A DNA stretch of 64,000 nt from Escherichia coli (GCF_022846255.1 NZ_AP025682.1), one strand, 5' to 3'; positions 15,111-35,269 are shown, counted from the stretch's first letter. The notes: generated by a model not told the origin, from the sequence alone. Program-made: numbers and translations.

Positions 15111-16499
15111 ATGGCACTGCAAAATGAGAAAAATAGTCGTTATCTTTTACGCGACTGGAAACCAGAAAATCCGGCCTTCTGGGAAAATAAAGGAAAGCAT
15201 ATTGCACGAAGAAACCTCTGGATATCAGTCAGTTGCCTACTTCTTGCCTTCTGTGTCTGGATGCTATTTAGCGCAGTTACTGTTAATCTCAATAAAATCG
15301 GTTTTAATTTCACTACCGATCAACTCTTTTTATTAACCGCATTACCCTCCGTTTCTGGCGCATTATTGCGTGTCCCCTACTCCTTTATGGTGCCTATATT
15401 CGGTGGACGCCGATGGACGGTTTTTAGTACTGCAATCCTGATTATTCCTTGCGTCTGGCTCGGAATTGCCGTGCAAAATCCGAATACCCCTTTTGGGATA
15501 TTTATCGTTATCGCTTTGCTATGCGGTTTTGCAGGTGCGAACTTTGCTTCGAGCATGGGCAATATCAGTTTCTTCTTTCCAAAAGCCAAACAAGGGAGCG
15601 CTCTTGGGATTAATGGCGGATTAGGAAACTTAGGTGTAAGTGTGATGCAGCTGGTTGCACCGCTGGTCATTTTTGTCCCCGTATTTGCCTTTCTCGGCGT
15701 CAATGGCGTACCGCAGGCCGACGGTTCGGTGATGTCGCTGGCGAATGCCGCATGGATTTGGGTGCCATTACTGGCGATTGCCACGATCGCCGCCTGGTCA
15801 GGGATGAATGATATCGCCAGTTCACGCGCCTCAATTGCCGACCAGCTCCCTGTCTTGCAACGCCTGCATCTCTGGCTGCTGAGCCTGCTTTATCTTGCCA
15901 CCTTCGGTTCGTTTATCGGTTTTTCTGCGGGTTTTGCCATGCTGGCAAAAACCCAGTTCCCGGATGTGAATATTCTGCGCCTGGCGTTCTTTGGCCCATT
16001 TATCGGTGCCATCGCGCGATCGGTTGGTGGTGCTATTTCCGATAAATTCGGCGGCGTGCGGGTGACGTTGATCAACTTCATTTTTATGGCGATTTTCAGC
16101 GCCCTGCTGTTCCTTACCTTACCGGGCACAGGCTCCGGTAATTTCATCGCATTTTACGCCGTATTTATGGGGCTGTTTCTGACCGCGGGTCTGGGAAGTG
16201 GTTCTACTTTCCAGATGATCGCCGTCATCTTTCGCCAGATAACAATTTATCGGGTGAAGATGAAAGGCGGTAGTGATGAGCAAGCTCAAAGAGAAGCCGT
16301 CACCGAAACGGCAGCCGCTCTGGGCTTTATCTCAGCCATTGGCGCAGTGGGCGGCTTTTTTATTCCGCAGGCGTTTGGCATGTCGCTCAATATGACCGGC
16401 TCTCCGGTGGGCGCGATGAAAGTGTTTTTAATCTTCTACATCGTTTGTGTGCTACTGACCTGGCTGGTTTATGGTCGGCGGAAGTTCAGCCAAAAATAA
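15111..16499 (+). CDS. narU: nitrate/nitrite transporter (MFS)
   Basis: 462-aa product beginning MALQNEKNSRYLLRDWKPENPAFWENKGK; NarK-like. Confidence 0.95.
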   Translation: MALQNEKNSRYLLRDWKPENPAFWENKGKHIARRNLWISVSCLLLAFCVWMLFSAVTVNLNKIGFNFTTDQLFLLTALPSVSGALLRVPYSFMVPIFGGRRWTVFSTAILIIPCVWLGIAVQNPNTPFGIFIVIALLCGFAGANFASSMGNISFFFPKAKQGSALGINGGLGNLGVSVMQLVAPLVIFVPVFAFLGVNGVPQADGSVMSLANAAWIWVPLLAIATIAAWSGMNDIASSRASIADQLPVLQRLHLWLLSLLYLATFGSFIGFSAGFAMLAKTQFPDVNILRLAFFGPFIGAIARSVGGAISDKFGGVRVTLINFIFMAIFSALLFLTLPGTGSGNFIAFYAVFMGLFLTAGLGSGSTFQMIAVIFRQITIYRVKMKGGSDEQAQREAVTETAAALGFISAIGAVGGFFIPQAFGMSLNMTGSPVGAMKVFLIFYIVCVLLTWLVYGRRKFSQK

Positions 16500-16507
16500 G
16501 AGATCGA

Positions 16508-16530
16508 TGCCTGACACGTCTTATCAGGCT
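16508..16530. repeat. REP-like palindromic element in the narU-narZ spacer
   Basis: gcctgacacgtcttatcaggc resembles the REP unit seen at 24228. Confidence 0.3.
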
Positions 16531-16593
16531 ACAACCGTGTCTCATCCGACAAGGCATCAGATCCCAATTCATTCCTGGAGCAGGAGTTATGTC

Positions 16594-19500: not shown

Positions 19501-20334
19501 GCGTGGCAAGCGCTGGGCGAGATCACCGGACGCGAACATACCCATCTGGCGCTGCACAAAGAGGACGAGAAGATTCGCTTTCGCGATATTCAGGCGCAGC
19601 CGCGTAAAATTATCTCCAGCCCCACATGGTCTGGTCTGGAAAGCGATCACGTTTCCTATAACGCGGGATACACCAACGTTCATGAGTTAATTCCGTGGCG
19701 CACGCTGTCAGGACGCCAGCAACTCTATCAGGATCATCCGTGGATGCGTGCTTTTGGTGAAAGTCTGGTGGCTTATCGCCCGCCTATCGACACCCGTAGC
19801 GTCAGTGAAATGCGCCAGATACCGCCAAACGGCTTCCCGGAGAAAGCCCTTAACTTCCTGACGCCGCACCAGAAATGGGGCATTCACTCAACCTACAGTG
19901 AAAACCTGCTAATGCTGACGCTCTCTCGCGGTGGACCGATTGTCTGGCTCAGCGAAACCGATGCCCGTGAACTGACCATTGTCGATAACGACTGGGTGGA
20001 AGTGTTTAACGCCAATGGCGCGCTGACTGCCCGCGCGGTGGTCAGCCAGCGTGTACCGCCGGGCATGACCATGATGTATCACGCTCAGGAACGCATTATG
20101 AATATTCCTGGTTCGGAAGTAACTGGCATGCGCGGCGGCATTCATAACTCGGTCACCCGCGTTTGTCCGAAACCAACGCATATGATTGGCGGTTACGCGC
20201 AGCTGGCCTGGGGCTTTAACTACTACGGCACCGTCGGCTCAAACCGCGACGAATTCATCATGATCCGCAAGATGAAGAACGTTAACTGGCTGGATGATGA
20301 AGGTCGCGATCAGGTACAGGAGGCGAAAAAATGA
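16594..20334 (+). CDS. narZ: respiratory nitrate reductase Z alpha subunit
   Basis: 1246-aa product beginning MSKLLDRFRYFKQKGETFADGHGQ (track ORF starts earlier at 16471); molybdopterin oxidoreductase. Confidence 0.95.
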   Translation: MSKLLDRFRYFKQKGETFADGHGQVMHSNRDWEDSYRQRWQFDKIVRSTHGVNCTGSCSWKIYVKNGLVTWEIQQTDYPRTRPDLPNHEPRGCPRGASYSWYLYSANRLKYPLIRKRLIELWREALKQHSDPVLAWASIMNDPQKSLSYKQVRGRGGFIRSNWQELNQLIAAANVWTIKTYGPDRVAGFSPIPAMSMVSYAAGTRYLSLLGGTCLSFYDWYCDLPPASPMTWGEQTDVPESADWYNSSYIIAWGSNVPQTRTPDAHFFTEVRYKGTKTIAITPDYSEVAKLCDQWLAPKQGTDSALAMAMGHVILKEFHLDNPSDYFINYCRRYSDMPMLVMLEPRDDGSYVPGRMVRASDLVDGLGESNNPQWKTVAVNTAGELVVPNGSIGFRWGEKGKWNLESIAAGTETELSLTLLGQHDAVAGVAFPYFGGIENPHFRSVKHNPVLVRQLPVKNLTLADGSTCPVVSVYDLVLANYGLDRGLEDENSAKDYAEIKPYTPAWGEQITGVPRQYIETIAREFADTAHKTHGRSMIILGAGVNHWYHMDMNYRGMINMLIFCGCVGQSGGGWAHYVGQEKLRPQTGWLPLAFALDWNRPPRQMNSTSFFYNHSSQWRYEKVTAQELLSPLADASKYSGHLIDFNVRAERMGWLPSAPQLGRNPLSLKAEADKAGLSPAEFTVQALKSGELRMACEQPDNGSNHPRNLFVWRSNLLGSSGKGHEYMQKYLLGTKSGIQGEELGPTEGIQPEEVEWQTAAIEGKLDLLVTLDFRMSSTCLFSDIVLPTATWYEKDDMNTSDMHPFIHPLSAAVDPAWESRSDWEIYKGIAKAFSQVCIGHLGKETDVVLQPLLHDSPAELSQPCEVLDWRKGECDLIPGKTAPNIVAVERDYPATYERFTSLGPLMDKLGNGGKGISWNTQDEIDFLGKLNYTKRDGPAKGRPLIDTAIDASEVILALAPETNGHVAVKAWQALGEITGREHTHLALHKEDEKIRFRDIQAQPRKIISSPTWSGLESDHVSYNAGYTNVHELIPWRTLSGRQQLYQDHPWMRAFGESLVAYRPPIDTRSVSEMRQIPPNGFPEKALNFLTPHQKWGIHSTYSENLLMLTLSRGGPIVWLSETDARELTIVDNDWVEVFNANGALTARAVVSQRVPPGMTMMYHAQERIMNIPGSEVTGMRGGIHNSVTRVCPKPTHMIGGYAQLAWGFNYYGTVGSNRDEFIMIRKMKNVNWLDDEGRDQVQEAKK

Positions 20335-21875
20335 AAATACGTTCGCAAGTCGGCATGGTGCTTAACCTCGATAAATGTATCGGCTGCCATACCTGTTCGG
20401 TGACCTGTAAAAACGTCTGGACCGGACGCGAAGGCATGGAGTACGCATGGTTTAACAACGTCGAAACCAAACCGGGCATTGGTTATCCGAAAAACTGGGA
20501 AGATCAGGAAGAGTGGCAAGGCGGCTGGGTGCGTGATGTGAATGGCAAGATCCGCCCGCGTCTGGGCAGCAAGATGGGCGTAATAACCAAAATCTTCGCC
20601 AACCCGGTGGTGCCGCAGATTGATGATTACTACGAACCTTTCACCTTCGACTACGAACATTTGCATAGCGCACCGGAAGGCAAACATATCCCTACTGCTC
20701 GCCCGCGTTCACTGATTGACGGCAAACGGATGGACAAAGTGATCTGGGGGCCAAACTGGGAAGAATTGTTGGGCGGCGAATTCGAAAAACGCGCCCGTGA
20801 CCGCAACTTCGAGGCCATGCAAAAGGAGATGTACGGGCAGTTTGAAAACACCTTCATGATGTACCTGCCGCGCTTGTGCGAACACTGCCTCAATCCCAGT
20901 TGCGTGGCGACCTGCCCAAGCGGCGCTATCTACAAACGCGAAGAAGACGGCATTGTGCTGATCGATCAGGATAAATGCCGTGGCTGGCGTTTGTGCATTA
21001 GCGGTTGTCCGTACAAAAAAATCTACTTCAACTGGAAAAGCGGCAAGTCAGAAAAATGTATCTTCTGTTACCCACGAATTGAGTCAGGCCAACCCACCGT
21101 GTGCTCAGAAACCTGCGTGGGTCGCATCCGGTATCTGGGCGTGCTGCTTTACGACGCCGACCGCATCGAGGAAGCGGCGAGCACCGAGCGCGAAGTTGAC
21201 CTCTATGAACGCCAGTGCGAAGTGTTCCTCGATCCGCACGATCCCTCAGTGATCGAAGAAGCCCTGAAACAAGGTATTCCACAAAACGTGATTGACGCTG
21301 CCCAGCGTTCGCCAGTCTACAAAATGGCAATGGACTGGAAACTGGCGCTACCGCTGCACCCTGAATACCGCACCCTGCCGATGGTCTGGTACGTTCCGCC
21401 GCTGTCACCGATTCAGTCCTACGCTGATGCGGGAGGTTTGCCGAAAAGCGAAGGCGTGCTGCCCGCCATCGAAAGCCTGCGTATTCCGGTGCAATATCTC
21501 GCCAATATGTTGAGTGCCGGTGATACCGGTCCGGTACTGCGGGCGCTGAAACGGATGATGGCGATGCGCCACTATATGCGTTCACAAACCGTGGAAGGCG
21601 TTACTGATACTCGTGCCATCGACGAAGTAGGTCTGAGCGTCGCCCAGGTCGAAGAGATGTATCGTTACCTCGCCATTGCCAACTATGAAGACCGTTTTGT
21701 CATCCCGACAAGCCATCGGGAAATGGCGGGCGATGCCTTCGCAGAACGCAACGGCTGCGGTTTTACCTTTGGCGACGGTTGCCACGGCTCGGACAGCAAA
21801 TTCAACCTGTTCAACAGTAGCCGTATCGATGCCATCAACATCACCGAAGTGCGCGACAAAGCGGAGGGCGAATAA
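20331..21875 (+). CDS. narY: respiratory nitrate reductase Z beta subunit (Fe-S)
   Basis: 514 aa with multiple Cys clusters; 4-nt overlap with narZ stop. Confidence 0.95.
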   Translation: MKIRSQVGMVLNLDKCIGCHTCSVTCKNVWTGREGMEYAWFNNVETKPGIGYPKNWEDQEEWQGGWVRDVNGKIRPRLGSKMGVITKIFANPVVPQIDDYYEPFTFDYEHLHSAPEGKHIPTARPRSLIDGKRMDKVIWGPNWEELLGGEFEKRARDRNFEAMQKEMYGQFENTFMMYLPRLCEHCLNPSCVATCPSGAIYKREEDGIVLIDQDKCRGWRLCISGCPYKKIYFNWKSGKSEKCIFCYPRIESGQPTVCSETCVGRIRYLGVLLYDADRIEEAASTEREVDLYERQCEVFLDPHDPSVIEEALKQGIPQNVIDAAQRSPVYKMAMDWKLALPLHPEYRTLPMVWYVPPLSPIQSYADAGGLPKSEGVLPAIESLRIPVQYLANMLSAGDTGPVLRALKRMMAMRHYMRSQTVEGVTDTRAIDEVGLSVAQVEEMYRYLAIANYEDRFVIPTSHREMAGDAFAERNGCGFTFGDGCHGSDSKFNLFNSSRIDAINITEVRDKAEGE

Positions 21876-22570
21876 TGCAGATCCTCAAAGTGATCGGCCT
21901 GTTGATGGAGTATCCGGACGAGCTGTTATGGGAATGTAAGGAGGACGCGCTGGCGTTGATCCGCCGCGACGCACCGATGCTTACGGATTTTACCCGCAAC
22001 CTGCTTAACGCGCCGCTGCTGGATAAACAGGCCGAATGGTGCGAAGTGTTTGACCGTGGACGTACCACATCGCTGCTGCTGTTCGAACATGTTCATGCCG
22101 AGTCCCGCGATCGCGGCCAGGCAATGGTGGACCTGCTGGCGGAGTATGAAAAGGTCGGTCTGCAACTGAATTGTAGGGAACTGCCCGATTATCTACCGCT
22201 GTATCTGGAGTATTTAAGCGTACTTCCGGACGATCAGTCGAAAGAAGGATTACTCAACGTTGCGCCGATCCTCGCCCTGCTTGGCGGACGCTTAAAACAA
22301 CGCGAGGCACCGTGGTACGCGTTATTTGACGCCCTGTTGCAACTGGCAGGAAGCCCTCTGTCAAGTGACAGCGTCACAAAACAGATTCGCAGTGAAGAGC
22401 GTGACGACACCCGCCAGGCGCTGGATGCCGTGTGGGAAGAAGAACAGGTGAAGTTTATTGAAGATAACGCCACGGCGTGTGACAGCTCGCCGCTTAATCA
22501 ATATCAGCGACGCTTTAGCCAGGATGTCGCGCCGCAGTATGTCGACATCAGTGCGGGAGGTGGGAAATGA
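21875..22570 (+). CDS. narW: nitrate reductase Z assembly chaperone (delta)
   Basis: 231 aa immediately after narY, NarJ-like. Confidence 0.9.
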
Positions 22571-23247
22571 TTCAGTATCTGAACGTCTTTTTTTACGATA
22601 TCTACCCGTACTTGTGTGGCACGGTTTTTATCCTTGGAAGCTGGCTGCGCTACGATTACGGGCAGTATACCTGGCGTGCCGCCTCCAGCCAGATGCTGGA
22701 TAAACGCGGGATGGTGCTATGGTCGAACTTGTTCCATATCGGCATTCTGGGGATCTTCTTCGGTCATCTGTTCGGCATGTTAACGCCGCACTGGATGTAC
22801 GCGTGGTTTCTGCCGGTGGCGGTAAAACAGCAGATGGCGATGATCCTCGGCGGAATATGCGGGGTATTGACGCTGATTGGCGGTGCGGGGCTACTGGTGC
22901 GTCGTTTAACAAATCCGCGTATCAGGGTGACGTCTTCTGGTGCGGATATCCTGATCCTCGCCATTTTGTTAATTCAGTGCATTCTTGGGTTAACCACCAT
23001 TCCTTTTTCAGCACAACATCCGGACGGCAGTGAAATGATGAAGCTGGTGGGCTGGGCGCAAAGCATTGTCACTTTCCAGGGCGGTGCATCTACGCATCTT
23101 GATGGTGTCGCCTTTATATTCCGCGTTCATCTGGTGCTTGGAATGACCATCTTCCTGCTCTTCCCGTTCACCCGACTGGTGCATGTCTGGAGCGCGCCGT
23201 TTGAGTACTTTACTCGTCGGTATCAGATTGTGCGTTCGCGGCGTTAA
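22567..23247 (+). CDS. narV: respiratory nitrate reductase Z gamma subunit (cytochrome b)
   Basis: 226-aa membrane protein, 4-nt overlap with narW. Confidence 0.95.
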
Positions 23248-23326
23248 TTCTCACGCGGGCCGGATAGCCCTTCGCTCTCCGGCCACTTGCAGGCTATGAT
23301 AGTTCTCCAGCCACAGGAGAACATTA

Positions 23327-24220
23327 ATGAAACCGCAGGTTTACCACGTCGATGCTTTTACCTCTCAACCGTTTCGCGGCAATTCTGCCGGTGTTGTTTT
23401 CCCCGCCGATAATCTCAGTGAAGCGCAAATGCAGCTTATCGCCCGCGAGTTAGGTCATTCGGAAACTGCTTTTCTGCTGCACAGAGACGACAGCGATGTG
23501 CGCATCCGCTACTTTACGCCAACGGTTGAAGTTCCGATTTGTGGTCACGCGACAGTAGCTGCGCACTATGTACGTGCAAAGGTGTTAGGTTTAGGAAATT
23601 GCACGGTCTGGCAAACATCGCTGGCAGGAAAACATCGCGTGACTATCGAAAAGCACAACGATGATTATCGTATTTCGCTGGAACAAGGTACGCCGGGCTT
23701 TGAGCCACCGCTGGAAGGTGAAACACGTGCGGCGATTATCAACGCGCTTCATCTCACTGAAGACGATATTCTGCCAGGCTTGCCAATTCAGGTGGCAACC
23801 ACAGGACACTCAAAAGTGATGATCCCACTGAAACCGGAAGTGGATATCGACGCCCTTTCGCCTGACCTTAATGCGCTGACCGCTATCAGCAAACAGATTG
23901 GCTGCAATGGTTTCTTCCCGTTCCAGATCCGCCCAGACAAAAACGAAACCGACGGTCGTATGTTCTCGCCTGCCATTGGTATTGTGGAAGATCCGGTGAC
24001 TGGCAATGCCAATGGCCCGATGGGTGCATGGTTAGTACATCACAACGTATTGCCCCACGATGGCAACGTGTTGCGTGTTAAAGGCCATCAGGGGCGCGCA
24101 TTAGGGCGTGACGGCGTGATTGAAGTGACGGTGACAATTCGTGATAACCAACCGGAGAAAGTCACCATTTCTGGCGTGGCGGTGATTTTGTTTCATGCCG
24201 AATGGGCAATTGAACTCTGA
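23327..24220 (+). CDS. yddE: PhzF-family isomerase-like protein
   Basis: 297 aa matching remembered YddE. Confidence 0.9.
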   Translation: MKPQVYHVDAFTSQPFRGNSAGVVFPADNLSEAQMQLIARELGHSETAFLLHRDDSDVRIRYFTPTVEVPICGHATVAAHYVRAKVLGLGNCTVWQTSLAGKHRVTIEKHNDDYRISLEQGTPGFEPPLEGETRAAIINALHLTEDDILPGLPIQVATTGHSKVMIPLKPEVDIDALSPDLNALTAISKQIGCNGFFPFQIRPDKNETDGRMFSPAIGIVEDPVTGNANGPMGAWLVHHNVLPHDGNVLRVKGHQGRALGRDGVIEVTVTIRDNQPEKVTISGVAVILFHAEWAIEL

Positions 24221-24227
24221 AACCGTT

Positions 24228-24304
24228 GCCTGATGCGCTTCGCTTATCAGGTCTACAACCGGGCTAATGTAGGCCGGATAAGGCGTTTACGCCACATCCG
24301 GCAA
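24228..24304. repeat. BIME / paired REP elements between convergent yddE and nhoA
   Basis: gcctgatgcgcttcgcttatcaggtctac followed by gtaggccggataaggcgtttacgccacatccggcaa, classic REP consensus. Confidence 0.6.
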
Positions 24305-24315
24305 CCTGACATAAA

Positions 24316-25161
24316 TTATTTTCCCGCCTCCGGGTGCGTATCAAACGCCGCCATCACCAGCGCTAACTCATCCACAGTAAAGCCATGTTTCGCATCATCT
24401 ACGCCCAGACCAAACTGTTCCTGCATCACGGCATATAACGACGCCACATCTGGTAGATTTCGCTGCTCAACTGCGTGCCCATTTTCATAATGGGTAAAAT
24501 GAAAATTGGTCAGCGTTAGCTTGCCACCGTCCGGCAAATGGCGACACATCAGCAAATGATGGCGAAAATGCGACTGCGGCCAGTGCGCCGACCAGAAATT
24601 GCCCATCACATAATCGCTTTGTTGCTGCTCGCAGAGATCAAAACGGTACATCGACTGCCAGTGCTGATGATGATTAAACTGCAACACCCAATCATCACCC
24701 TCCTGCAACAACCGATACTCTCCGTGTGGCGTGGTTTGCATGATATCCGGCATTAAACGAATCGGCGCGGTTAGCGTCTGCCCACCGAAACCGACATCAG
24801 CAATCCATTTTTCCCCTTCCAGTTCCACCAACAGCAAACGATGGGTGCGCGGCGGTAATGCTGGCGGATTTGATAACACTACGCGCCCTAACAAGCTGCG
24901 AACGTTAAACCCCAGCTCGCGTAACACCCGCTCAAACACGCCATTCTGCTCAAAACAGTAACCACCACGACGGGCTATCACCAGTTTCTCTTCCAGCGAT
25001 TGATCATCAAGCTGTATTTCCCTCGGCAGCAAAACGTCGAGATTTTCAAACGGAATGGTGCAATTGTGTTTCAGGTGCAATGCACGCAGCGTATCAATAT
25101 TGGCCGCAGCAGCTCCCAACCAGTTAATACGGGCAAAATAATGATTCAGAATGGGCGTCAT
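24316..25161 (-). CDS. nhoA: arylamine N-acetyltransferase / N-hydroxyarylamine O-acetyltransferase
   Basis: 281 aa, NAT family. Confidence 0.95.
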   Translation of the reverse strand: MTPILNHYFARINWLGAAAANIDTLRALHLKHNCTIPFENLDVLLPREIQLDDQSLEEKLVIARRGGYCFEQNGVFERVLRELGFNVRSLLGRVVLSNPPALPPRTHRLLLVELEGEKWIADVGFGGQTLTAPIRLMPDIMQTTPHGEYRLLQEGDDWVLQFNHHQHWQSMYRFDLCEQQQSDYVMGNFWSAHWPQSHFRHHLLMCRHLPDGGKLTLTNFHFTHYENGHAVEQRNLPDVASLYAVMQEQFGLGVDDAKHGFTVDELALVMAAFDTHPEAGK

Positions 25162-25335
25162 CAGGCGTTTCCCTTAGTGGTTTTCTCAACTTATAACCTG
25201 GAATAGACGCCGCACTGGCTATTTTGTGCGATCGCGGACATGCATCACGTTCGCAAATCGCCAATCCCGTTAATTTCGTTACTTATTGCGTTACGAGCTA
25301 CGCTTTTAAAACACCCTTCATAGCGAGGCGATATC

Positions 25336-25905
25336 GTGAGCCGATTCATCCCTGTCGAATTACACCATGCCAGCCGTCTGTTAAATCATGGCCCAACTGT
25401 CTTGATCACCAGTTTCGATGAGCAATCCCAGCGGCGTAACATTATGGCAGCAGCCTGGTCAATGCCGGTGGAGTTTGAACCGCCACGCGTGGCGATTGTG
25501 GTAGATAAATCGACATGGACCAGGGAGTTGATTGAACGTAACGGTAAGTTTGGCATCGTTATCCCGGGCGTTGCGGCGACTAACTGGACGTGGGCGGTGG
25601 GAAGTGTGTCGGGGCGTGATGAAGATAAGTTTAATTGCTATGGTATTCCGGTTGTGAAAGGTCCGGTGCTTGGTTTGCCGCTGGTCGAGGAAAAATGTCT
25701 GGCGTGGATGGAGTGTCGCCTGCTACCTGCAACTTCCGCGCAAGAAAAATACGATACGCTATTTGGCGAAGTGGTATCTGCAGCGGCAGACGCACGAGTA
25801 TTTGTCGAAGGCCGCTGGCAGTTTGATGATGACAAACTCAATACGTTGCATCATTTAGGTGCTGGCACGTTTGTTACCAGCGGCAAGCGTGTTACGGCAG
25901 GTTAA
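25336..25905 (+). CDS. yddH: flavin reductase-like domain protein
   Basis: 189 aa matching remembered YddH. Confidence 0.85.
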   Translation: MSRFIPVELHHASRLLNHGPTVLITSFDEQSQRRNIMAAAWSMPVEFEPPRVAIVVDKSTWTRELIERNGKFGIVIPGVAATNWTWAVGSVSGRDEDKFNCYGIPVVKGPVLGLPLVEEKCLAWMECRLLPATSAQEKYDTLFGEVVSAAADARVFVEGRWQFDDDKLNTLHHLGAGTFVTSGKRVTAG

Positions 25906-25908
25906 GCA

Positions 25909-26136
25909 TTACATGCTGTAACCGGGTTTCTTTATCAAAGCCTCCATTTGGGGCTCGACTTCGGCATCCCAGATAGCTTGCCAAGATTCTGGTTGAATCT
26001 GCTGTAGAGAAATGCTTATCGAGCTATCTTTACTGTTCAGATGGCGAATAATAACGTCGGTAATATCTGCAGCAAGTGCTGCTTTTTGTTGTTCGTCCAG
26101 TTCACGCGGAAAACATTTAATGTCTATGTGCGGCAT
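25909..26136 (-). CDS. pptA: tautomerase (4-oxalocrotonate tautomerase family)
   Basis: 75-aa product [16 protein letters not shown]... with the N-terminal Pro typical of tautomerases; start placed by codon arithmetic from the 88-aa track ORF. Confidence 0.85.
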
Positions 26137-26441
26137 GATTGTGCTCCTTTTGAAAGATGTCAGTAAAATTAACACACGTTGTGAATGTCGTGTGTCCGGT
26201 AATGCGTTTTTACGGCAATAATGCCTACTTGAAATTGTACATATTTGTACTACACACTTTTAAATAAAGCGCCAATGAAAACGTTAACTTGCAGAATATA
26301 TTCTTCGCCAACATGCCATTAAGAAAACATCAAGTTCCCGGCTTGCCAATTTGTTAACGCCCATTATAGTTATTCTTGCCCTCACTAAAAATTTTCATCC
26401 GTAATTACCCCCAATAAAAATCCATTCTGGAGACGCTTAAG

Positions 26442-28418
26442 ATGCAGCTTAATCATATCGTTAAAAGTCTGCTAATAACGGGATTATTCACCACCAGTTC
26501 TTTACCTCTCCTCGCGGCGGAAGCTCCTAAAGACGCCACCGCAGCCACGCAACAAGCAAACAATTTACTCTACAACCAGTTGCCGTTTGCCGATAACACT
26601 GACTTTACTGATGCCCATAAAGGTTTTATTGCCCCTATCCCTCAAGACGTGATTAAGGGCGAACAAGGGAATGTTATCTGGGATCCACAACATTACGCTT
26701 TTATCAAAGAAGGCGATAAAGCCCCTGATACGGTGAATCCGAGTTTATGGCGTCAGGCGCAACTGATAAATATCAGCGGGTTATTCGAAGTAACTGAAGG
26801 TGTCTATCAGATTCGCAATCTCGATCTATCAAATATGACCATCATTGAAGGCAAAGAGGGTATTACCGTCGTTGATCCCCTTGTTTCAGCAGAAACAGCC
26901 AAAGTGGGTATGGATCTCTATTACAAAAATCGCGGCAAAAAACCGGTAGTGGCGGTTATCTATACACACAGTCATGTCGATCACTACGGTGGTGTTCGTG
27001 GCGTAATTGATGAAGCTGACGTTAAATCAGGCAAAGTTAAAATCTATGCGCCAGCCGGATTTTTGGAGGAAGCCGTTTCCGAAAACATCATGGCTGGCAA
27101 TGTTATGAGCCGACGAGCCAGTTATATGTATGGCAACTTATTGAAACCTGATGTTAAAGGCCAGGTGGGGGCTGGACTGGGAACGACTACTTCAGCAGGA
27201 ACAGTCACGTTGATTGCTCCTACTAACTACATCACCAAAACCGGACAAATAGAAACTATTGACGGGTTGACTTATGATTTCCTGATGGCGCCAGGTTCTG
27301 AAGCGCCTTCTGAAATGCTGTGGTTTATTGAAGAAAAGAAACTGATCGAAACCGCTGAAGATGTCACGCACACCCTTCATAACACCTATTCGCTGCGTGG
27401 GGCTAAAATTCGCCAACCGCTGCCGTGGTCAAAATATATTAATGAAGCTCTCAATTTGTGGGGTGATAAAGCCGAGATTATTCTCGCTCAACATCACTGG
27501 CCAACCTGGGGCAACGATAACGTGGTCAAACTGCTTAAAAGCCAGCGTGATTTGTATCGTTACATCAATGATCAAACTCTGCGCATGGCTAATCAAGGGA
27601 TGACCCGTGATGAAATTGCCGCAAACTTTAAACTGCCCTCTTCACTGGCTAACACCTGGGCGAATCGCGGCTATTACGGTTCGGTAAGTCATGACGTGAA
27701 AGCAACTTACGTGCTTTATCTCGGCTGGTTTGATGGTAACCCCGCGACGCTTGATGAACTGCCGCCAGAAGAAGGCGCAAAAAAATTCGTCGAGTATATG
27801 GGCGGTGCTGATGCCATTTTACAGAAAGCCAAACAGGATTATGACCAGGGTAATTTCCGCTGGGTTGCCCAAGTTGTTAGTAAGGTGGTGTTTGCCGATC
27901 CAAACAACCAGGCAGCGAGAGATCTGGAAGCTGATGCGCTTGAGCAGTTAGGCTATCAGGCTGAATCTGGGCCGTGGCGTAATTTCTATCTCACTGGTGC
28001 ACAGGAATTGCGTAATGGCGTACAAAAATTACCAACACCAAATACTGCCAGCCCAGACACCGTGCGTGCGATGACGCCGGAGATGTTCTTTGATTATCTT
28101 GCCGTCCATATTAATGGTGAGAAAGCGGCAGATGCCAAAACCGTGTTGAATTTCGATTTTGGTGAAGATGGCGGCACCTATAAAGTGGAGCTTGAAAATG
28201 GTGTTCTCAATCATACCGCTGGTGTAGAGGCTTCGGATGCTGATGCCACTATCACTCTGTCTCGTGATGTATTGAACAAAATTGTACTGAAAGAAGAGAC
28301 GCTGAAAGAAGCCACGGCCAAAGGAGATGTCAAAATTACTGGCAATGCGGAAAAACTCAACGAGCTGTTAGGTTATATGGATAATTTTGAATTTTGGTTC
28401 AATATAGTGACACCATAA
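26442..28418 (+). CDS. secreted alkyl/aryl-sulfatase-like metallo-beta-lactamase-fold hydrolase
   Basis: 658 aa with N-terminal signal peptide (..SLPLLAAEAP) and metal-binding motif HSHVDHYGG; SdsA1/YjcS-like architecture; not at this position in K-12 as I recall. Confidence 0.75.
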   Translation: MQLNHIVKSLLITGLFTTSSLPLLAAEAPKDATAATQQANNLLYNQLPFADNTDFTDAHKGFIAPIPQDVIKGEQGNVIWDPQHYAFIKEGDKAPDTVNPSLWRQAQLINISGLFEVTEGVYQIRNLDLSNMTIIEGKEGITVVDPLVSAETAKVGMDLYYKNRGKKPVVAVIYTHSHVDHYGGVRGVIDEADVKSGKVKIYAPAGFLEEAVSENIMAGNVMSRRASYMYGNLLKPDVKGQVGAGLGTTTSAGTVTLIAPTNYITKTGQIETIDGLTYDFLMAPGSEAPSEMLWFIEEKKLIETAEDVTHTLHNTYSLRGAKIRQPLPWSKYINEALNLWGDKAEIILAQHHWPTWGNDNVVKLLKSQRDLYRYINDQTLRMANQGMTRDEIAANFKLPSSLANTWANRGYYGSVSHDVKATYVLYLGWFDGNPATLDELPPEEGAKKFVEYMGGADAILQKAKQDYDQGNFRWVAQVVSKVVFADPNNQAARDLEADALEQLGYQAESGPWRNFYLTGAQELRNGVQKLPTPNTASPDTVRAMTPEMFFDYLAVHINGEKAADAKTVLNFDFGEDGGTYKVELENGVLNHTAGVEASDADATITLSRDVLNKIVLKEETLKEATAKGDVKITGNAEKLNELLGYMDNFEFWFNIVTP

Positions 28419-28432
28419 ATTTACTGCATACC

Positions 28433-28455
28433 GGGCAGGTATCCTGCCCTTTTTT
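28433..28455 (+). terminator. Rho-independent terminator after the sulfatase gene
   Basis: gggcagg-tat-cctgccc hairpin followed by a T6 run. Confidence 0.6.
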
Positions 28456-28464
28456 GGTTAAAAA

Positions 28465-29562
28465 ATGGCTGAACGAAGAAAAACGCATCACTCATGGAAA
28501 ACCCGCCGCGATATGGTTATTCGCGGCATGACGATTAGTTTGCCATGGTTTGCTTTTATCAATGTCAGTTTTGCATTGATAATTTTGCTGCGCCGTGTTC
28601 TGTTTAATGACCTTACTCCACCCTGGTTAAATGAAAAAAGCCTTATACATTCTATTGATATATCTGCAACGGGTATTCTGCTGATTTGCAGTGGTTTACT
28701 ACTCATCCCTCGGCAAAAAACATTACCTATCCAGGTGCTATTAGTTGCCCTGAGCCTGCTATGGTCATGGTGTAGTTATCACTTTATTGCGTACTGGACG
28801 CTGCAGTTTGCTTATCCACTATGTGTATTATTAATGCTTAGTGGCGTTGTCGCACTTTATTTCCATACCCCATCATTGCTCGCATTTGTCATTCCCTTAT
28901 GGTTCACCACTCCAATAGCGAGTCTTATGCTTAATCAACAGATCAATATTCATTTTGCTGTTGTATGGTGTATTTTTTCACTGGCGCTATATGGTGGGCG
29001 ACTCATTTTGTTACGTTGGTTTGAAGAAGCATGGGTACAAAACAGTTATAACAACCAGTTAATTAATCGCCTTGATGCATTAGCACATCGCGATCCTTTA
29101 ACTGGGATAGCAAACCGACGTGCAATGAACAGTATCTTACACGACGCGATGGATAACGGCGGGTCATTTGCTCTTATTATGCTGGATGTCGATTTTTTTA
29201 AACGTTACAACGACACTTACGGGCATCCTGCTGGGGATCGTTGTCTAATACAAGTTGCCGACGCTCTACAGCGTTCAACTCGCCAGTCGGAGGATGTTGT
29301 TGTCCGTTATGGTGGCGAAGAGTTTGCCATCATACTTTTTAATGCAACATTGCCGGAAGCAGAGACGGTAGCAGCCAGAGTGAAGCAAGAACTTAAACTG
29401 GCAGCTATCCCACATCAGGCATCTGCTGTTAATGCATTCGTTACGGTTAGTCAGGGGATTACCTGTTCTGCTCCCGCAAAAACGGCTGAACAAATTATTT
29501 CAGATGCCGACGCTGCGTTATACCGGGCGAAAGAAAGTGGGCGAAATCGATGGGCTTTATAA
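28465..29562 (+). CDS. membrane-anchored diguanylate cyclase (GGDEF domain)
   Basis: 365 aa: about 190-aa N-terminal region with several predicted TM helices, then GGDEF domain with active-site RYGGEEF; precise start codon uncertain (several in-frame Met). Confidence 0.8.
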   Translation: MAERRKTHHSWKTRRDMVIRGMTISLPWFAFINVSFALIILLRRVLFNDLTPPWLNEKSLIHSIDISATGILLICSGLLLIPRQKTLPIQVLLVALSLLWSWCSYHFIAYWTLQFAYPLCVLLMLSGVVALYFHTPSLLAFVIPLWFTTPIASLMLNQQINIHFAVVWCIFSLALYGGRLILLRWFEEAWVQNSYNNQLINRLDALAHRDPLTGIANRRAMNSILHDAMDNGGSFALIMLDVDFFKRYNDTYGHPAGDRCLIQVADALQRSTRQSEDVVVRYGGEEFAIILFNATLPEAETVAARVKQELKLAAIPHQASAVNAFVTVSQGITCSAPAKTAEQIISDADAALYRAKESGRNRWAL

Positions 29563-29589
29563 GCATTAGGGGACTGGACAGATTACGTC

Positions 29590-30328
29590 TCTCCTCGCTT
29601 AACAAGGGCTGACGGAGGGTAATAATTGTCTATAGCTATCTTCTTAGCGATGTCTTTCTGGTATCACATTGGATCGGTGCAATTATTTTTCCTTTAATAC
29701 CCATTATGTTAAGAAATTCAGAACCAGCTGTAATCTCATTGTTTTTTTCATTCGTCTTGATCTTCCAAGGAATCTGACTGTGCATTATTGAGAACACACT
29801 AATAACGTGAATCGCTCCCTTGCGACGACTCTTGTCATAAGAGTACCGGAGCGTTTTTCCATCAATTGCAATGACGTCTTTATCATCTGAAGAATGGCAG
29901 TCAAGCATCCAGTTAATAAAGCACTCATGAAATTTTTCAGGACTGATACAGGATACAACTCTGGCAATGGTATCGTGAACAGGAATACCATTATCAAAAT
30001 CACCATATTGCTTCAAAAAATCGAGATGTGTTTCCCCAAAATCCTCTATATCTTCCCAGCCTTCTGCACCCGAAATAACGACACAAATAGTCAACAGTAG
30101 AATATCCGATAATTTATGCTCCACTTTCCAGGCTTGTCTGTAATCGGGGATAATAGAAATATGTTCCATCAATTTTTTAAGTTCCATTTTGTTCTCCTTA
30201 ATTATGTAAAGAGTATTTGATCATGTATAAGCAATAAAAAACAGCTTTAGGTAATGAGGAATATCTCAATTTTTAAACATAAAATGCGAATTATTTAGTA
30301 CAAAAAAGCAGCGTTACGTGATCTTTCC
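29590..30328 (-). mobile_element. truncated, diverged ISAs1-family (H-repeat) element copy
   Basis: 183-aa ORF (29636..30187) is similar but not identical to the N-terminal part of the H-repeat transposase at 31727..32554, then diverges; its 5' flank (about 30190..30328) repeats 32560..32695. Confidence 0.6.
29636..30187 (-). pseudogene. ISAs1-family transposase, truncated copy
   Basis: N-terminal about 150 aa align with the second copy, C-terminal tail diverges and terminates early. Confidence 0.65.
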
Positions 30329-30348
30329 ATGGAAAAGAGAGTAATACA

Positions 30349-30364
30349 CTGATTTTTAACGCAG
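30349..30364 (+). promoter_or_regulatory. candidate LexA (SOS) box upstream of the symE-like gene
   Basis: CTG-N10-CAG (ctgatttttaacgcag) with AT-rich spacer about 65 bp upstream of the ATG; deviates from CTGT/ACAG at two conserved positions; K-12 symE is SOS-regulated. Confidence 0.25.
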
Positions 30365-30427
30365 ATTGCCAGTGCTACCAACACTGACAATCTGCTCACC
30401 ACAAGCAACTAACAGAGGTAGTTAATC

Positions 30428-30747
30428 ATGGCTGAACACGATATTACGCCAGAAGTCGCCATTTCCAAAACACAGCGCCGCTATAAAGTCGGCTATGTCA
30501 GAGCCCGCCACATAAACAGCAAACCACGTACTACTCACGACACCCCAGCCTGAACCTTAAGGGCGACTGGCTGAAAGAGGCCGGATTTGATACCGGACGG
30601 GGTGTCACGGTGAAGATTTCGGAGGGGTGCCTGACCATCATCGCTGACAGTGACGAGGTGCAGGAACTGCGGGAGGAACTTTATCAGGTTAAACAGGTGG
30701 TTAAGGGGATGCGGAACGGGATGTTTAGTGTGCTGAACGAGAATTAA
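30428..30747 (+). pseudogene. symE-like type I toxin gene (AbrB-fold), apparently frameshifted
   Basis: 41 codons from ATG 30428 (MAEHDITPEVAISKTQRRYKVGYVRARHINSKP...) end at TGA about 30551; the SymE core LNLKGDWLKEAGFDTGRGVTVKISEGCLTII... continues in the -1 frame to TAA about 30745; restoring one C near 30550 would fuse them. Confidence 0.6.
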
Positions 30748-30797
30748 ATAATAAAAAAGCCGGGGAGATTTAAAATCTTCCCGGCTTTCTTTATCAT

Positions 30798-31100
30798 CTA
30801 AAAAGGTAATAATCCTCTAATAGGAGAAAATTTTGTAATATCAATACCTTGTAATTTAAAGTAATTAAAAGCATCTTCTATATTGGAAAACGCACTAATT
30901 TCTTCAGTTGCATAATCTTCGAACACTTCCATTTTATTTTCTGGTATTTTGAAAAAATAGGTATTGTATTTTTCATCCTGTTTTTTAATGGCATATTGGA
31001 AAAAATAACTTTCACCATTTATTTCCTTTATCTCATCAAAACCTCTAACCTTACCATTCTCTATAGCAACAATTAATTTTTCAATAGACAAATCAACCAT
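30798..31100 (-). CDS. putative immunity protein for the upstream toxin-like ORF
   Basis: 100-aa acidic, low-GC ORF; its ATG overlaps the stop of the upstream ORF (ATGgtTGA), the usual toxin-immunity arrangement; no sequence family recognised. Confidence 0.45.
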   Translation of the reverse strand: MVDLSIEKLIVAIENGKVRGFDEIKEINGESYFFQYAIKKQDEKYNTYFFKIPENKMEVFEDYATEEISAFSNIEDAFNYFKLQGIDITKFSPIRGLLPF

Positions 31101-31440
31101 CTATATCTATCCTCACCATTGTCCCATCAGAACGTTTAATATTTATATGAGGCAAAGAACCATGCCCTGTGCCTTTATGGTCATCATGACCATATACACG
31201 ACCAGTATTAGAATCAATAGGGTAATCTTTCCTATAACGGACAGTACCATCTCTTTTCTTAAATTGTTCCATCTTATGTTTTTTTCTAATACCGGCGGCA
31301 TCCTGCGAACTGATCCCTCTTACTTTTTGAGCATCAGGAAAGGCCTCCATCAATAAATCATGGGCTTCCTGTTTTGATTTAACTGTGACAACGGTTCCTT
31401 GAGGCCCCAGGGCAAGATTACGAAAGCCCGCTCCCCGCAA
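31093..31440 (-). CDS. putative orphan polymorphic-toxin C-terminal domain (3' fragment of an IS-disrupted gene)
   Basis: Track ORF begins inside the ISAs1 end with a TTG; first ATG gives [10 protein letters not shown]... (about 31350); C-terminal His-rich motif [21 protein letters not shown] is reminiscent of HNH/beta-beta-alpha-Me nuclease toxins; low GC. Confidence 0.4.
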
Positions 31441-32695
31441 GGACTGACGCCAGATAGTTTCTGTCCATGGCTGCTTTTCGCATCTTACGTCTTAACCCTG
31501 CCTTGAATACCTTATCATTCGTCAAAATATTAATAGCGATGTGCCGTATCCCTGAAAATAATTCTGCTGCATTTCCTCTTCTTATTTTGCAGTCGTCTTC
31601 ATTCATTACCACGTCCAGACGCCAGTGCAGCTTATTCTCCACGTGCCAGTGGTTTCGGATTGCTGTGGCGAACTTCTCTGCGGTTAAATCAGCAGAACTG
31701 ATATAATATCTGACCGTCATTTCTGGCTATTTCTTTTGTTCTGCTATTATGGACCGAAAGGAGACTGCCACGCATAATTTCTTCAGTCCTTTCCATTCAA
31801 ACGTGAAATCAATAAGTTCATCAGGGACATCGCAAACAATATGAAGACGGATTTCTTCTCTGCCGTGACTTTTTTCACTAATTGCGTAACTGTCATGCTC
31901 TGGATTATTCAATTCTTTCAGCGGAAATTTTTCCTCGAAGGCTTTATTTAGCCGCCCCTGGTTTCCTTTTACAGCGAATAAATAATCACCTCCCTGTTTT
32001 TGTATCTTCTCTGCAATATCTTTCTGGCAACCCATCGCATCAGTTGTGATGATTTTTCCTTTAATATCCAGCATGTTAAGAAGTTCAGGGATAGCTGTAA
32101 TTTCATTGGATTTCTCATCCGTCCTGATCTGTCCGATGACCAGACTGTGCATTGTTGAGAACGCACTAATGACATGAATCGCTCCCCTGCGGCGACTCTT
32201 GTCATAAGAATGTCGGAGCGTTTTTCCATCAATTGCAATAACGTCTTTATCATCTGAAGAATGGCAGTCACGCATCCAGTTAATAAAGCACTCGTGAAAT
32301 TTTGCAGGACTGATACAGGATACAACTCTGGCAATGGTATCGTGAACAGGAATACCATTTTCAAAATCACCATATTGCTTCAAAAAATCGAGATGTGTTT
32401 CCCCAAAACCCTCTATATCTTCCCAGCCTTCTGCACCAGAAATAACGGCACAAATAGTCAACAGTAGAATATCCGATAATTTATGTTCCACTTTCCAGGC
32501 TTGTCTGTAATCGGGGATAATAGAAATATGTTCCATCAATTTTTTAAGTACCATTTTGTTCTCCTTAATTATGTAAGGAGTATTTGATCATGTATAAGCA
32601 ATAAAAAACAGCTTCAGGTAATAAGGAATATCTCAATTTTTAAACATAAAATGCGAATTATTTAGTACAAAAAAGCAGCGTTACGTGATCTTTCC
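31400..32695 (-). mobile_element. ISAs1-family (H-repeat) insertion sequence
   Basis: Transposase reading frame of about 379 codons (31418..32554) with the [26 protein letters not shown]-terminal signature; upstream boundary set where the two copies' flanks diverge (after ...gtgatctttcc). Confidence 0.7.
31418..32554 (-). pseudogene. ISAs1-family transposase, split by a frameshift near 31720-31727
   Basis: 275-aa N-terminal ORF (31727..32554) and 100-aa C-terminal ORF (31418..31720) are contiguous in different frames. Confidence 0.7.
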
Positions 32696-32871
32696 CTGGT
32701 TATCGCTGTTCTTTCCCCTTGACCAGGCAAATATTTTTCATTATGGATCCATACCTTGCTATAATCAATTGTATTCTCAAAAATCGATCTGGCCAATGTT
32801 AATTCACCAGATGTCATTCTCCTTAATGACATATCCTTTCCCCTGGAAATAATATCTTTCAGATAAAACAC
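32662..32871 (-). pseudogene. 5' fragment of a gene truncated by the ISAs1 insertion; N-terminus resembles DUF4157-type domains
   Basis: 69-aa ORF whose last about 12 codons are encoded by IS-end sequence; motif LARSIFENTIDYSKVWIH resembles the E..fG.DfS.VRVH N-terminal signature of DUF4157 (a recollection, not verified). Confidence 0.35.
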
Positions 32872-33769
32872 AAACGCTCTTTGATGTTCAACATTCCCAC
32901 TTTATACAGTATTGATGGCATCATCTTCATAGAAAATGAAATCAAAGCAAGTTATCAACGTTTCCCATTACGATTTCTTAACATTAATTCTCAGCATTTT
33001 TATTAATCTATTTTCAATATCAATAACCGATGCAAATGATTACGCAGTTAACATAATCCTTATCAATTGATTAATATCTGTAAACGCTACCGCCCCACCC
33101 TGATATCTTAATCTGCACATAGCAATCTTAACGTTATGCCCCATACATTAGTAATGTAAATTAAGAATTCGGAATATATCAAATTCACTTCATAAATTAA
33201 TATCGGGAATGATATACACATTAATTATATTGAAGTAATGGTTTAAGAGTTGTAATGACCATGGAACAGGACTAATTCCAGAAACTCCTGTTGGGCAATA
33301 GCGCGTTTATCATCCTACATGCCTCTTACATTTTTTAGCCTTTTCTTTAACGTCAGCAATTGGCTCATTTAATCAGCAATGGTATTGGTATTTGGCGTAT
33401 TACCCCTGAAACCCGTCATGTGCTAGCACCTCACTATTCAATGAGCCAACCACGCCAGTGTCCACTGCAACCACTGGCGTTCAGAGCGACGAACGAGTGG
33501 CGCAAGAGTAGGACTGCCGTCGGGCATCATCAAACCAATAGTTGTTGTTTCCGTCAAAATTTCATCAGGTTGCTATTTGGTTGCCGGCCGCCTTTATCCC
33601 CACATATTTATAGCGGGATTATTTTGCATCGTTACACGATAAAAGGTAGGATTCTGCGCCGACAGTTATACCCATAAAGAATAATGGTGAATCTTGTCAT
33701 CGCCAGGATGAATAAACATTGTTCATGGCAACTTATATGACTTTTTCATTAAAGCAATCAGGGAGAGCA

Positions 33770-35269
33770 ATGAGTAAACACGACACCGACACTTCAGATC
33801 AACACGCCGCGAAACGCCGCTGGCTTAATGCCCACGAAGAGGGGTATCACAAAGCGATGGGCAATCGCCAGGTACAGATGATCGCCATTGGCGGCGCGAT
33901 TGGCACCGGCTTGTTTTTAGGTGCAGGAGCCCGACTGCAAATGGCGGGGCCAGCACTGGCACTGGTCTATTTAATCTGCGGCCTGTTTTCATTTTTTATT
34001 CTGCGTGCATTGGGTGAGCTGGTGCTACACCGCCCTTCCAGTGGCAGTTTTGTCTCTTATGCCCGTGAGTTTTTAGGAGAGAAAGCCGCTTACGTTGCAG
34101 GCTGGATGTACTTCATCAACTGGGCGATGACGGGGATTGTCGATATTACCGCCGTCGCTCTGTATATGCATTACTGGGGTGCGTTTGGCGGCGTGCCGCA
34201 GTGGGTCTTTGCGCTCGCTGCGCTGACCATCGTTGGTACCATGAATATGATTGGTGTGAAATGGTTTGCGGAGATGGAGTTCTGGTTTGCGCTTATTAAA
34301 GTGCTCGCCATCGTGACCTTTTTGGTCGTGGGTACAGTGTTCCTCGGTAGCGGTCAGCCGCTGGATGGCAACGCCACTGGCTTTCATTTAATTACCGATA
34401 ACGGCGGCTTTTTCCCCCACGGTTTGCTGCCTGCGCTGGTGTTGATTCAGGGCGTAGTGTTTGCTTTTGCCTCCATTGAAATGGTGGGTACAGCGGCCGG
34501 AGAATGTAAAGATCCGCAGACCATGGTGCCTAAAGCGATTAACAGTGTGATTTGGCGTATTGGTCTGTTTTACGTCGGCTCCGTGGTGTTGCTGGTTATG
34601 TTATTGCCGTGGAGCGCGTATCAGGCGGGGCAAAGTCCGTTCGTGACGTTTTTCTCTAAACTGGGTGTGCCATATATCGGCAGCATTATGAACATTGTGG
34701 TGCTGACCGCTGCCCTCTCCAGCCTGAATTCAGGTCTGTACTGCACCGGGCGTATTCTGCGCTCGATGGCGATGGGCGGTTCCGCACCGAGTTTTATGGC
34801 GAAAATGAGTCGTCAGCATGTGCCGTATGCCGGGATTCTGGCGACACTGGTTGTGTATGTCGTCGGCGTATTCCTCAACTATCTGGTGCCGTCGCGCGTA
34901 TTTGAGATTGTGTTGAACTTCGCGTCGCTGGGAATCATCGCTTCATGGGCGTTTATCATCGTGTGCCAGATGCGCCTGCGTAAAGCGATTAAAGAAGGCA
35001 AAGCAGCGGATGTCAGTTTTAAACTGCCTGGCGCGCCCTTCACTTCCTGGCTGACATTACTGTTTTTACTGAGTGTCCTTGTGCTGATGGCGTTCGATTA
35101 CCCGAACGGGACTTATACTATCGCGGCGCTGCCGTTTATCGGTATTCTGCTGGTTATAGGCTGGTTTGGTGTGCGCAAACGCGTTGCTGAAATTCACAGC
35201 ACTGCGCCAGTCGTCGAGGAAGATGAAGAACAACAGGAAATTGTGTTTAAGCCTGAAACGGCGAGTTAA
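33770..35269 (+). CDS. ansP: L-asparagine permease (APC family)
   Basis: 499-aa product beginning MSKHDTDTSDQHAAKRRWLNAHEEGYHK; track ORF starts upstream at 33719. Confidence 0.95.
   Translation: MSKHDTDTSDQHAAKRRWLNAHEEGYHKAMGNRQVQMIAIGGAIGTGLFLGAGARLQMAGPALALVYLICGLFSFFILRALGELVLHRPSSGSFVSYAREFLGEKAAYVAGWMYFINWAMTGIVDITAVALYMHYWGAFGGVPQWVFALAALTIVGTMNMIGVKWFAEMEFWFALIKVLAIVTFLVVGTVFLGSGQPLDGNATGFHLITDNGGFFPHGLLPALVLIQGVVFAFASIEMVGTAAGECKDPQTMVPKAINSVIWRIGLFYVGSVVLLVMLLPWSAYQAGQSPFVTFFSKLGVPYIGSIMNIVVLTAALSSLNSGLYCTGRILRSMAMGGSAPSFMAKMSRQHVPYAGILATLVVYVVGVFLNYLVPSRVFEIVLNFASLGIIASWAFIIVCQMRLRKAIKEGKAADVSFKLPGAPFTSWLTLLFLLSVLVLMAFDYPNGTYTIAALPFIGILLVIGWFGVRKRVAEIHSTAPVVEEDEEQQEIVFKPETAS

Follow-up and report, generated by a model that had tools for sequence, protein, structure and literature searches.

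The interval between pptA and ansP was analysed in a 64,000-nucleotide stretch of Escherichia coli DNA (GCF_022846255.1, NZ_AP025682.1), referred to here as the window, and it proves to have two parts of different origin. The part next to pptA, from position 26226 to 29554, is a native block of two genes, one for a predicted periplasmic alkyl/aryl sulfatase and one for a predicted membrane diguanylate cyclase. K-12 and other strains have lost these genes through deletions that end at a copy of the insertion sequence ISAs1. The part next to ansP, from 29555 to 33614, is inserted DNA that holds the remains of a vgrG-Rhs type VI effector island together with ISAs1 copies. A single composite locus has thus decayed in different ways in the window and in K-12; the two do not stand for a genome with an island and a genome without one. 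Very probably the interval is the rhsE rearrangement hot spot of E. coli, which has decayed in many ways, one of which the window shows. It represents ordinary genome plasticity at an already known Rhs site, and no new kind of element or system.

The gene order on the left (narI-yddE-nhoA-yddH-pptA) and on the right (ansP-yncE-pqqU) is the same as in K-12 MG1655, in keeping with the synteny claimed in the original prediction, which was made from the sequence alone. In MG1655 the interval contains ydcC (ISAs1), an ISAs1 pseudogene, yncO, ydcD, the rhsE pseudogene, yncH and yncG. The genes b1455-b1461 are entered as an Rhs locus in Table 6 of PMC3032704. As predicted, the K-12 content is missing here: a search for its interior DNA (rhsE, ydcD, yncG and yncH) across the whole window found none, except for weak ISAs1 paralogy. 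Homology to K-12 stops on the left at 26225, the exact point at which the left end of the K-12 ISAs1 (ydcC) abuts the pptA flank, and restarts on the right at 33615. The interval first delimited as 26176-33769 is real, but by this comparison the stretch that differs from K-12 is 26226-33614. Its AT-rich character is also evident. The guanine-plus-cytosine (GC) content per 500-bp step is 0.31-0.49 inside the interval against 0.51-0.55 outside, with means of 0.413 for 26226-33614, 0.388 for 29563-33614 and 0.50 for the whole window. Every item of the predicted gene set (sulfatase, GGDEF protein, two ISAs1 copies, symE pseudogene and toxin/immunity module) is present by profile or alignment evidence (Table 1).

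A resident gene block beside inserted DNA

Evidence that the two-gene block is native comes from genomes that carry it at this position in the absence of mobile DNA. One of them is E. coli 980-2, with the order pptA-sulfatase-GGDEF-yncG-ansP and the GGDEF gene directly abutting yncG. Of the 5426 complete E. coli genomes searched, 86 share this junction, and 438 contain the whole sulfatase-GGDEF pair. When the cyclase protein was scanned against one genome per species (GTDB) and its neighbour genes were mapped by tblastn, full-length relatives were found only in Escherichia, Citrobacter and, distantly, Aeromonas. Three of the Escherichia genomes are not E. coli, since they are just 87.6-89.4% identical to K-12 in narI-yddH. 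The first (L009) has the order pptA-sulfatase-GGDEF-yncG-ansP, the second (L011) has pptA-sulfatase-GGDEF-ansP without yncG, and the third (L010, Escherichia sp. E1V33) has pptA, a partial sulfatase gene and GGDEF, followed by Rhs. Their sulfatase and GGDEF DNA is 80-97% identical to the window, which is the range of the flank genes (87-95%). In two Citrobacter genomes the order is yddH-GGDEF-pptA-yncG-ansP, with a GGDEF gene that is 64% identical.

Alignment with the island-free form places the end of homology between 29554 and 29555, two codons before the cyclase stop. Since the block is present at the same site in these relatives and the breakpoint falls exactly here, 26226-29554 is native and 29555-33614 is inserted. 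Absence from the same site in relatives or sister species, which is expected of a genomic island, is not seen for 26226-29554. It is seen for 29555-33614, which is missing between GGDEF and yncG in 980-2 and L009 and between GGDEF and ansP in L011, and which has a GC content of 0.39 and carries ISAs1 copies. The suggestion of horizontally acquired cargo is thus borne out for the inserted DNA but not for the sulfatase and cyclase genes.

The gene yncG, which is not in the window, is likewise native. In 3581 of the 5426 genomes both yncG and yncH are complete, and no remnant of yncG was found in the window in the 74 bp 3′ of the cyclase gene. The alleles of yncG are unusually diverse, most genomes being 90-95% identical to the 980-2 gene (L098 11337-11954).

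Strains without the pair retain traces of it. In RS571 the DNA of the pptA flank continues 70 bp into the sulfatase gene before ydcC begins, and in OkiPb01695 a 3′ remnant of the GGDEF gene, just 90.8% identical, adjoins ydcC. Since these gene stumps lie beside ISAs1, the sulfatase and cyclase genes must have been present before they were lost. The idea that an island has replaced the K-12 genes is accordingly reversed: the sulfatase and cyclase are old residents, yncG is equally native, and K-12 shows a state of loss. The case calls for caution in using K-12 as a baseline, because the seemingly accessory genes have long been resident here, and it is the laboratory strain that has lost them.

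Table 1. Features of the pptA-ansP interval and its flanks, in window coordinates
Feature	Position	Strand	Evidence or remarks
pptA, left conserved flank gene	25909..26136	-	NCBIfam PptA equivalog 153.8 bits, cutoff 83; offset from RefSeq annotation of 2014C-3338 (L001)
Native two-gene block (sulfatase and cyclase), lost by K-12	26226..29554	+	K-12 homology stops at 26225; island-free homology ends at 29554
Predicted periplasmic metallo-β-lactamase (MBL)-fold (type III) alkyl/aryl sulfatase, 658 aa	26442..28418	+	Pfam Lactamase_B (PF00753), Alkyl_sulf_dimr (PF14863), Alkyl_sulf_C (PF14864)
Predicted MASE5-GGDEF membrane diguanylate cyclase, 349 aa	28513..29562	+	Pfam MASE5 7.5e-44, GGDEF (PF00990) 1.9e-48; NCBIfam GGDEF 157.6 bits
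Inserted DNA: vgrG-Rhs type VI effector island remains and ISAs1 copies	29555..33614		4060 bp, GC 0.39
ISAs1 fragment, 695 bp: 5′ half of transposase gene and outer inverted repeat	29637..30331	-	NCBIfam transpos_ISAs1, profile positions 1-142 of 314
symR-like antisense RNA candidate over symE start	30358..30433	-	Rfam symR 48.3 bits, below gathering threshold of 61; E 6.4e-7
symE-family toxin pseudogene	30429..30747	+	10-bp deletion after about 30522, giving a 41-aa product; aligned to intact 110-aa gene of 2014C-3338
Hairpin, 15-bp stem, between convergent symE and immunity genes	30756..30788		Terminator-like site
Candidate immunity gene for Rhs toxin tip, intact, 100 aa	30798..31100	-	Identical to gene just downstream of tip in 2014C-3338 and APEC E12049
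Rhs C-terminal toxin tip	31093..31407	-	Lacks first 12 of 116 residues and the entire Rhs shell; match to 2014C-3338 (L001) stops at 31408
ISAs1-family element (ydcC/ISEc1-like), 1291 bp	31408..32698	-	97.0% identical to K-12 ydcC
First 44 codons of gene for 176-aa HExxH protein	32699..32832	-	Matches L001 13829-13963
AT-rich upstream region of island	32833..33614		Contiguous with L001 and L006, absent from K-12; GC 0.38 over 32872-33614
ansP, right conserved flank gene	33770..35269	+	Offset from RefSeq annotation of L001 and L002

Exchange between lineages and the history of the locus

The block and its surroundings also differ in how they are shared among strains. From 26000 to 31400 the window is 99.2-100% identical per 500 bp to avian pathogenic E. 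coli (APEC) E12049 and to 2014C-3338. Strain TUM14771 is 99.6-100% identical per 500 bp, only up to the ISAs1 fragment (about 30330). The flanks of the block, by comparison, vary from 83.6% to 99.8% per 500 bp. Eight further genomes carry the exact YddH allele of the window, which is very common. They are 99.4-99.8% identical to the window over 26200-30330 and 95.5-96.2% identical in the 10.9 kb leftward. Identity in these genomes always ends at 30328-30333, the outer end of the ISAs1 fragment, and is followed by different Rhs tips and immunity genes. A second class of the block, about 98.2% identical, goes with the island-free arrangement. On the narZ side (10000-24000) the best identity among the complete genomes is 98.9%, to B2-type strains. 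Since a near-identical block lies in divergent flanks, it must also move between lineages by homologous recombination. At least nine architectures occur among the genomes compared, with mosaic flank identity of 83% to 99.8% per 500 bp, so the description of the interval as a recombination hot spot is well founded. The arrangement at 30200-33700 recurs in none of the 5426 genomes at a coverage of at least 80%. The flank from narZ to yddH (17500-25999) is itself strongly mosaic, with 90.6% identity to L006 in the 18500 bin and 83.6% to L003 in the 22500 bin, between stretches of at least 99%.

Two other accounts of the block have to be weighed against native residence followed by loss. According to the original prediction, the entire stretch 26176-33769 would be a single horizontally acquired island that displaced the K-12 genes. 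The low GC content throughout the interval, the ISAs1 copies and the presence of the sulfatase-GGDEF pair in just 438 genomes agree with this account. It is nevertheless highly improbable, since 86 E. coli genomes, as well as non-coli Escherichia, have these two genes in the same place with no mobile DNA, their stumps adjoin ISAs1 in strains without the genes, and the inserted DNA begins only at 29555. Alternatively, the sulfatase-GGDEF block with the ISAs1 fragment could have entered recently from another Escherichia through the conserved flanks and then swept, most E. coli never having had it. Carriers are indeed 99.4-99.9% identical while their flanks are at least 4% apart, and E1V33 has a window-type junction 3′ of a GGDEF gene that is 96.8% identical. 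This, too, seems unlikely in view of the second allele class with yncG in the island-free arrangement and the separate deletion stumps of RS571 and OkiPb01695, the latter with its divergent GGDEF remnant; moreover, no non-coli donor nearer than 92-97% was found. Residence followed by loss thus accounts best for the block, although several observations weigh against it. The GC contents of the sulfatase gene (0.46) and the cyclase gene (0.43) are below the local average, which is the usual hint of foreign origin, though that of pptA is itself 0.44. The GGDEF gene of L011, just 80% identical, is far below the identity of its own flanks. The diversity of the block is no more than 0.6% in most carriers, which fits the recent spread of a single haplotype and does not fit long vertical descent in all carriers. 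In view of this low diversity, the word ancestral applies to the locus and to the genus, but need not apply to every individual strain. Finally, the order of events, with the island first and ISAs1 later, is drawn from a handful of genomes and not from a phylogeny.

Based on these comparisons, the ancestral locus had the order pptA, sulfatase, MASE5-GGDEF cyclase, yncG and ansP, without mobile DNA, as in the island-free genomes. The type VI effector island probably entered at the last cyclase codons, between the cyclase gene and yncG, and ISAs1 (H-rpt) elements would have inserted into the island afterwards. In this genome, the stretch that begins at codon 45 of the HExxH gene and ends at residue 12 of the toxin tip is missing, and so is yncG; in K-12 the sulfatase and cyclase genes were removed instead. 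The block from pptA to the toxin tip has also passed from one E. coli lineage to another by homologous recombination in the conserved flanks. The locus is a worked example of how Rhs islands, ISAs1 (H-rpt) and flank-mediated recombination produce many gene contents at one site, as traced across the 5426 genomes.

The sulfatase and the cyclase

The sulfatase has the full three-domain architecture of SdsA1, PSdsA and YjcS. The MBL catalytic domain, the dimerisation domain and the SCP2-like C-terminal domain are all found in the translated sequence, as expected of a type III alkyl sulfatase. Its closest structures in the PDB, all matched over the full length, are 7tl5 (1192 bits), PSdsA 4nur (1035), YjcS 4pdx (699) and SdsA1 2cfu (635). 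It is a paralogue of K-12 YjcS and is nearer to 7tl5 and PSdsA. The N-terminus, judged by eye, resembles a signal peptide, and a terminator-like hairpin lies 3′ of the gene at 28433-28449. An identical protein is encoded by at least 1000 contigs.

The predicted cyclase carries the active-site motif GGEEF in its translation, a form of GG(D/E)EF, while its RxxD inhibition site reads RQSED and is non-canonical. A longer open reading frame (ORF) starts at 28465. The last two codons consist of inserted DNA, so that the protein ends in RNRWAL in the window and in RNRWEK in the island-free form. The same junction at 29555-29562, which changes EK to AL, is also present in Escherichia sp. E1V33. In the databases the protein is named just 'GGDEF domain-containing' or 'membrane-associated sensor domain-containing'. 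It may be the protein called 'DgcY' by Povolotsky and Hengge (2016) and in the nomenclature paper of Hengge (2016). A full-text literature search for MASE5 gave only unrelated material among the matches listed.

DgcX of enteroaggregative E. coli (EAEC) and O104:H4 strains is likewise an extra membrane GGDEF cyclase without a K-12 counterpart. It has a MASE4 domain and is located next to lambdoid prophages, at attB or elsewhere (PMC4287979, PMC10459773). Since the cyclase of the window has MASE5 and is fixed at the pptA locus, its identity with DgcX is ruled out.

Both genes are intact and their products probably work. About 8% of E. coli have one more diguanylate cyclase, apparently intact, along with a second alkyl sulfatase, which bears on differences between strains in signalling by cyclic di-GMP (c-di-GMP).

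The Rhs island remains and the ISAs1 copies

The fullest form of the island is found in APEC E12049 (L006). Read from ansP, it contains the genes for the HExxH protein, a lipoprotein, VgrG, a DcrB-like protein, Rhs with its toxin tip and the immunity protein, then symE and an ISAs1 fragment, followed by GGDEF, sulfatase and pptA. Compared with APEC E12049 and 2014C-3338, which carry the island as an orphan vgrG-Rhs type VI effector island, the window is 99.5% identical over 26000-31408 and 98.3% identical over 32698-34000, and shares symE, the immunity gene, the toxin tip and the start of the HExxH gene. It differs in lacking the lipoprotein gene, vgrG, the DcrB-like gene and the Rhs core, which are replaced by the 1291-bp ISAs1; this element stands in place of L001 9418-13829. 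An Rhs core, that is a YD-repeat ORF ending in PxxxxDPxGL, is present in L006, L003 and L091 but not in the window, where the Rhs features are a predicted toxin tip overlapped by a small putative immunity gene and H-rpt/ISAs1 DNA at the known Rhs locus. The RhsE element of K-12 lies at the same site with the same ISAs1 (ydcC, 97%) and is similarly decayed, with a tip and a small immunity gene. The toxin tip/immunity pair of the window, however, differs from rhsE/ydcD and comes without the YD-repeat core, and the window keeps the sulfatase and cyclase genes whereas K-12 keeps yncG and yncH.

Rhs elements with H-rpt (ISAs1) components have long been known. The two ISAs1 copies of the window are 88-92% alike, and the fragment is 91-92% identical to ydcC. 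In the 1291-bp copy, a DDE transposase and the terminal inverted repeats CAGGGCAAGATTACG and CAGGGAAAGATCACG are recognisable. The transposase gene is split into ORFs at 31727-32554 (275 aa) and 31418-31720 (100 aa), which match NCBIfam transpos_ISAs1 (NF033564) with 305 and 97 bits. No target-site duplication was found around this copy, and its flanks are unrelated. It therefore lacks both the intact transposase and the target duplication of a simple, potentially active insertion. The same ISAs1 (97-98% identical, same orientation) has different flanks in K-12, C10, SA186, RS571 and OkiPb01695. Since the neighbours of ISAs1 change from strain to strain and a target duplication is lacking, deletions or ISAs1-ISAs1 recombination must have removed different stretches in different lineages. 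In strain SA186 (L005 4372-6960) the locus is cut down to yddH-ydcC(ISAs1)-ansP with pptA deleted, and the same match pattern occurs in JJ1887 and many clinical strains.

The HExxH gene, of which the window has only the start, opens the vgrG island in relatives, and strain C10 has the same ISAs1 junction in it. The full protein carries the motif HEMMH and has no Pfam or NCBIfam match. Its RefSeq label, 'type IV secretion protein Rhs', looks like a misnomer. The first two genes of the island (L006 22174-23057) encode this 176-aa protein and the 118-aa lipoprotein, which has a sub-threshold match (30.9 bits, cutoff 43) to the NCBIfam model 'putative T6SS immunity periplasmic lipoprotein', where T6SS stands for type VI secretion system.

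The symE-family gene, with an antisense symR-like match at its start, resembles the SymE/SymR type I toxin-antitoxin system. Here, however, the ORF is broken, and both matches at this locus are below the curated thresholds. The protein of the intact relative scores 50.9 bits against a cutoff of 132 for NCBIfam SymE, and its RefSeq label is 'SymE family'. The module formed by symE, the immunity gene and the toxin tip is whole in 71 of the 5426 genomes. None of the matches listed has the 10-bp deletion, since each spans 1086 bases compared with 1076 in the query. An Rfam match to isrA, a small RNA of Salmonella islands, lies antisense to symE at 30499-30617 on the minus strand (96.4 bits, gathering threshold 51), and the 10-bp deletion is inside it.

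In 2014C-3338 (L001) and APEC E12049 (L006) the toxin tip comes right after the motif NPLSWIDPLGL at the end of the Rhs gene. In the window it is joined to the ISAs1 end, and this junction creates a 115-aa ORF with a TTG start (31093-31440), in which the first 11 residues come from the insertion sequence. The immunity gene, with a GC content of 0.26, overlaps the stop codon of the tip, and its protein has no Pfam or NCBIfam match. Since the window lacks an Rhs shell, a PAAR domain and VgrG, the tip is presumably undeliverable; symE would be dead, and the ISAs1 transposase appears to be inactivated by its frameshift. The orphan immunity gene, which is intact, could protect against neighbours that deliver this toxin, and may help to decide which type VI toxins of competitors the strain can withstand. 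A one-base frameshift is found in L001 (about 9470-9540) and L006 (about 15060-15140), between DPIGLAGG and INLYQYAPNPLSWIDPLGL, before INLYQY; in the two genomes examined, Rhs shell and tip thus lie in different reading frames.

Relatives of the tip form 91 cluster representatives (clusters at 50% identity). In longer proteins the domain is always C-terminal, and the matches in AlphaFold DB are Rhs, Hint-domain and pre-toxin TG proteins from many phyla. An alignment of 58 sequences shows one invariant histidine and the conserved pattern YHKDY...GH...H...PHINI, and the AlphaFold model has a predicted local distance difference test (pLDDT) score of 93.3. The tip has no Pfam or NCBIfam match, and a profile search of the PDB gave nothing below E = 0.18.

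These features permit more ambitious views of the interval than that of a decayed Rhs site. In view of the about 91 clusters, the C-terminal position within longer proteins, the confident model and the conserved pattern, the tip might be an undescribed polymorphic-toxin domain, perhaps with a new toxic activity against which the strain would keep the immunity gene. As their genes have remained adjacent in different species of Escherichia, the sulfatase and the MASE5 cyclase might form a sensory pair that links sulfated compounds to c-di-GMP. This whole proposal must be considered rather doubtful. It is still less likely that the remnant tip and its immunity gene are a working pair, in which the fusion ORF is read from the ISAs1 end and acts as an addiction-like module that retains the DNA. 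The toxin domain is short of just 12 of its 116 residues and keeps all conserved positions (H99, H94, D73 and Y74), the immunity gene is intact, and the TTG-initiated ORF runs across the junction, its exact 115-aa product being called on an independent metagenome contig. On the other hand, a search for a promoter gave weak consensus matches only, and the missing 12 residues take most of the predicted first helix (residues 5-12). In addition, the tip had already been uncoupled from Rhs by the frameshift in all examined relatives, which suggests relaxed selection.

The contig with the exact junction ORF (L089; ERZ929318 k127_11549) is the only further occurrence found. This contig (positions 1-9459) includes a match to window positions 32698-29982 at 98.8% and has the same broken symE of 41 aa. 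On the far side of ISAs1 the contig runs into a type VI secretion cluster (TssM, Rap1a, Tae4, TagF and a glucosaminidase). The join may reflect another genomic setting, or the assembly may have made it falsely across the repeat.

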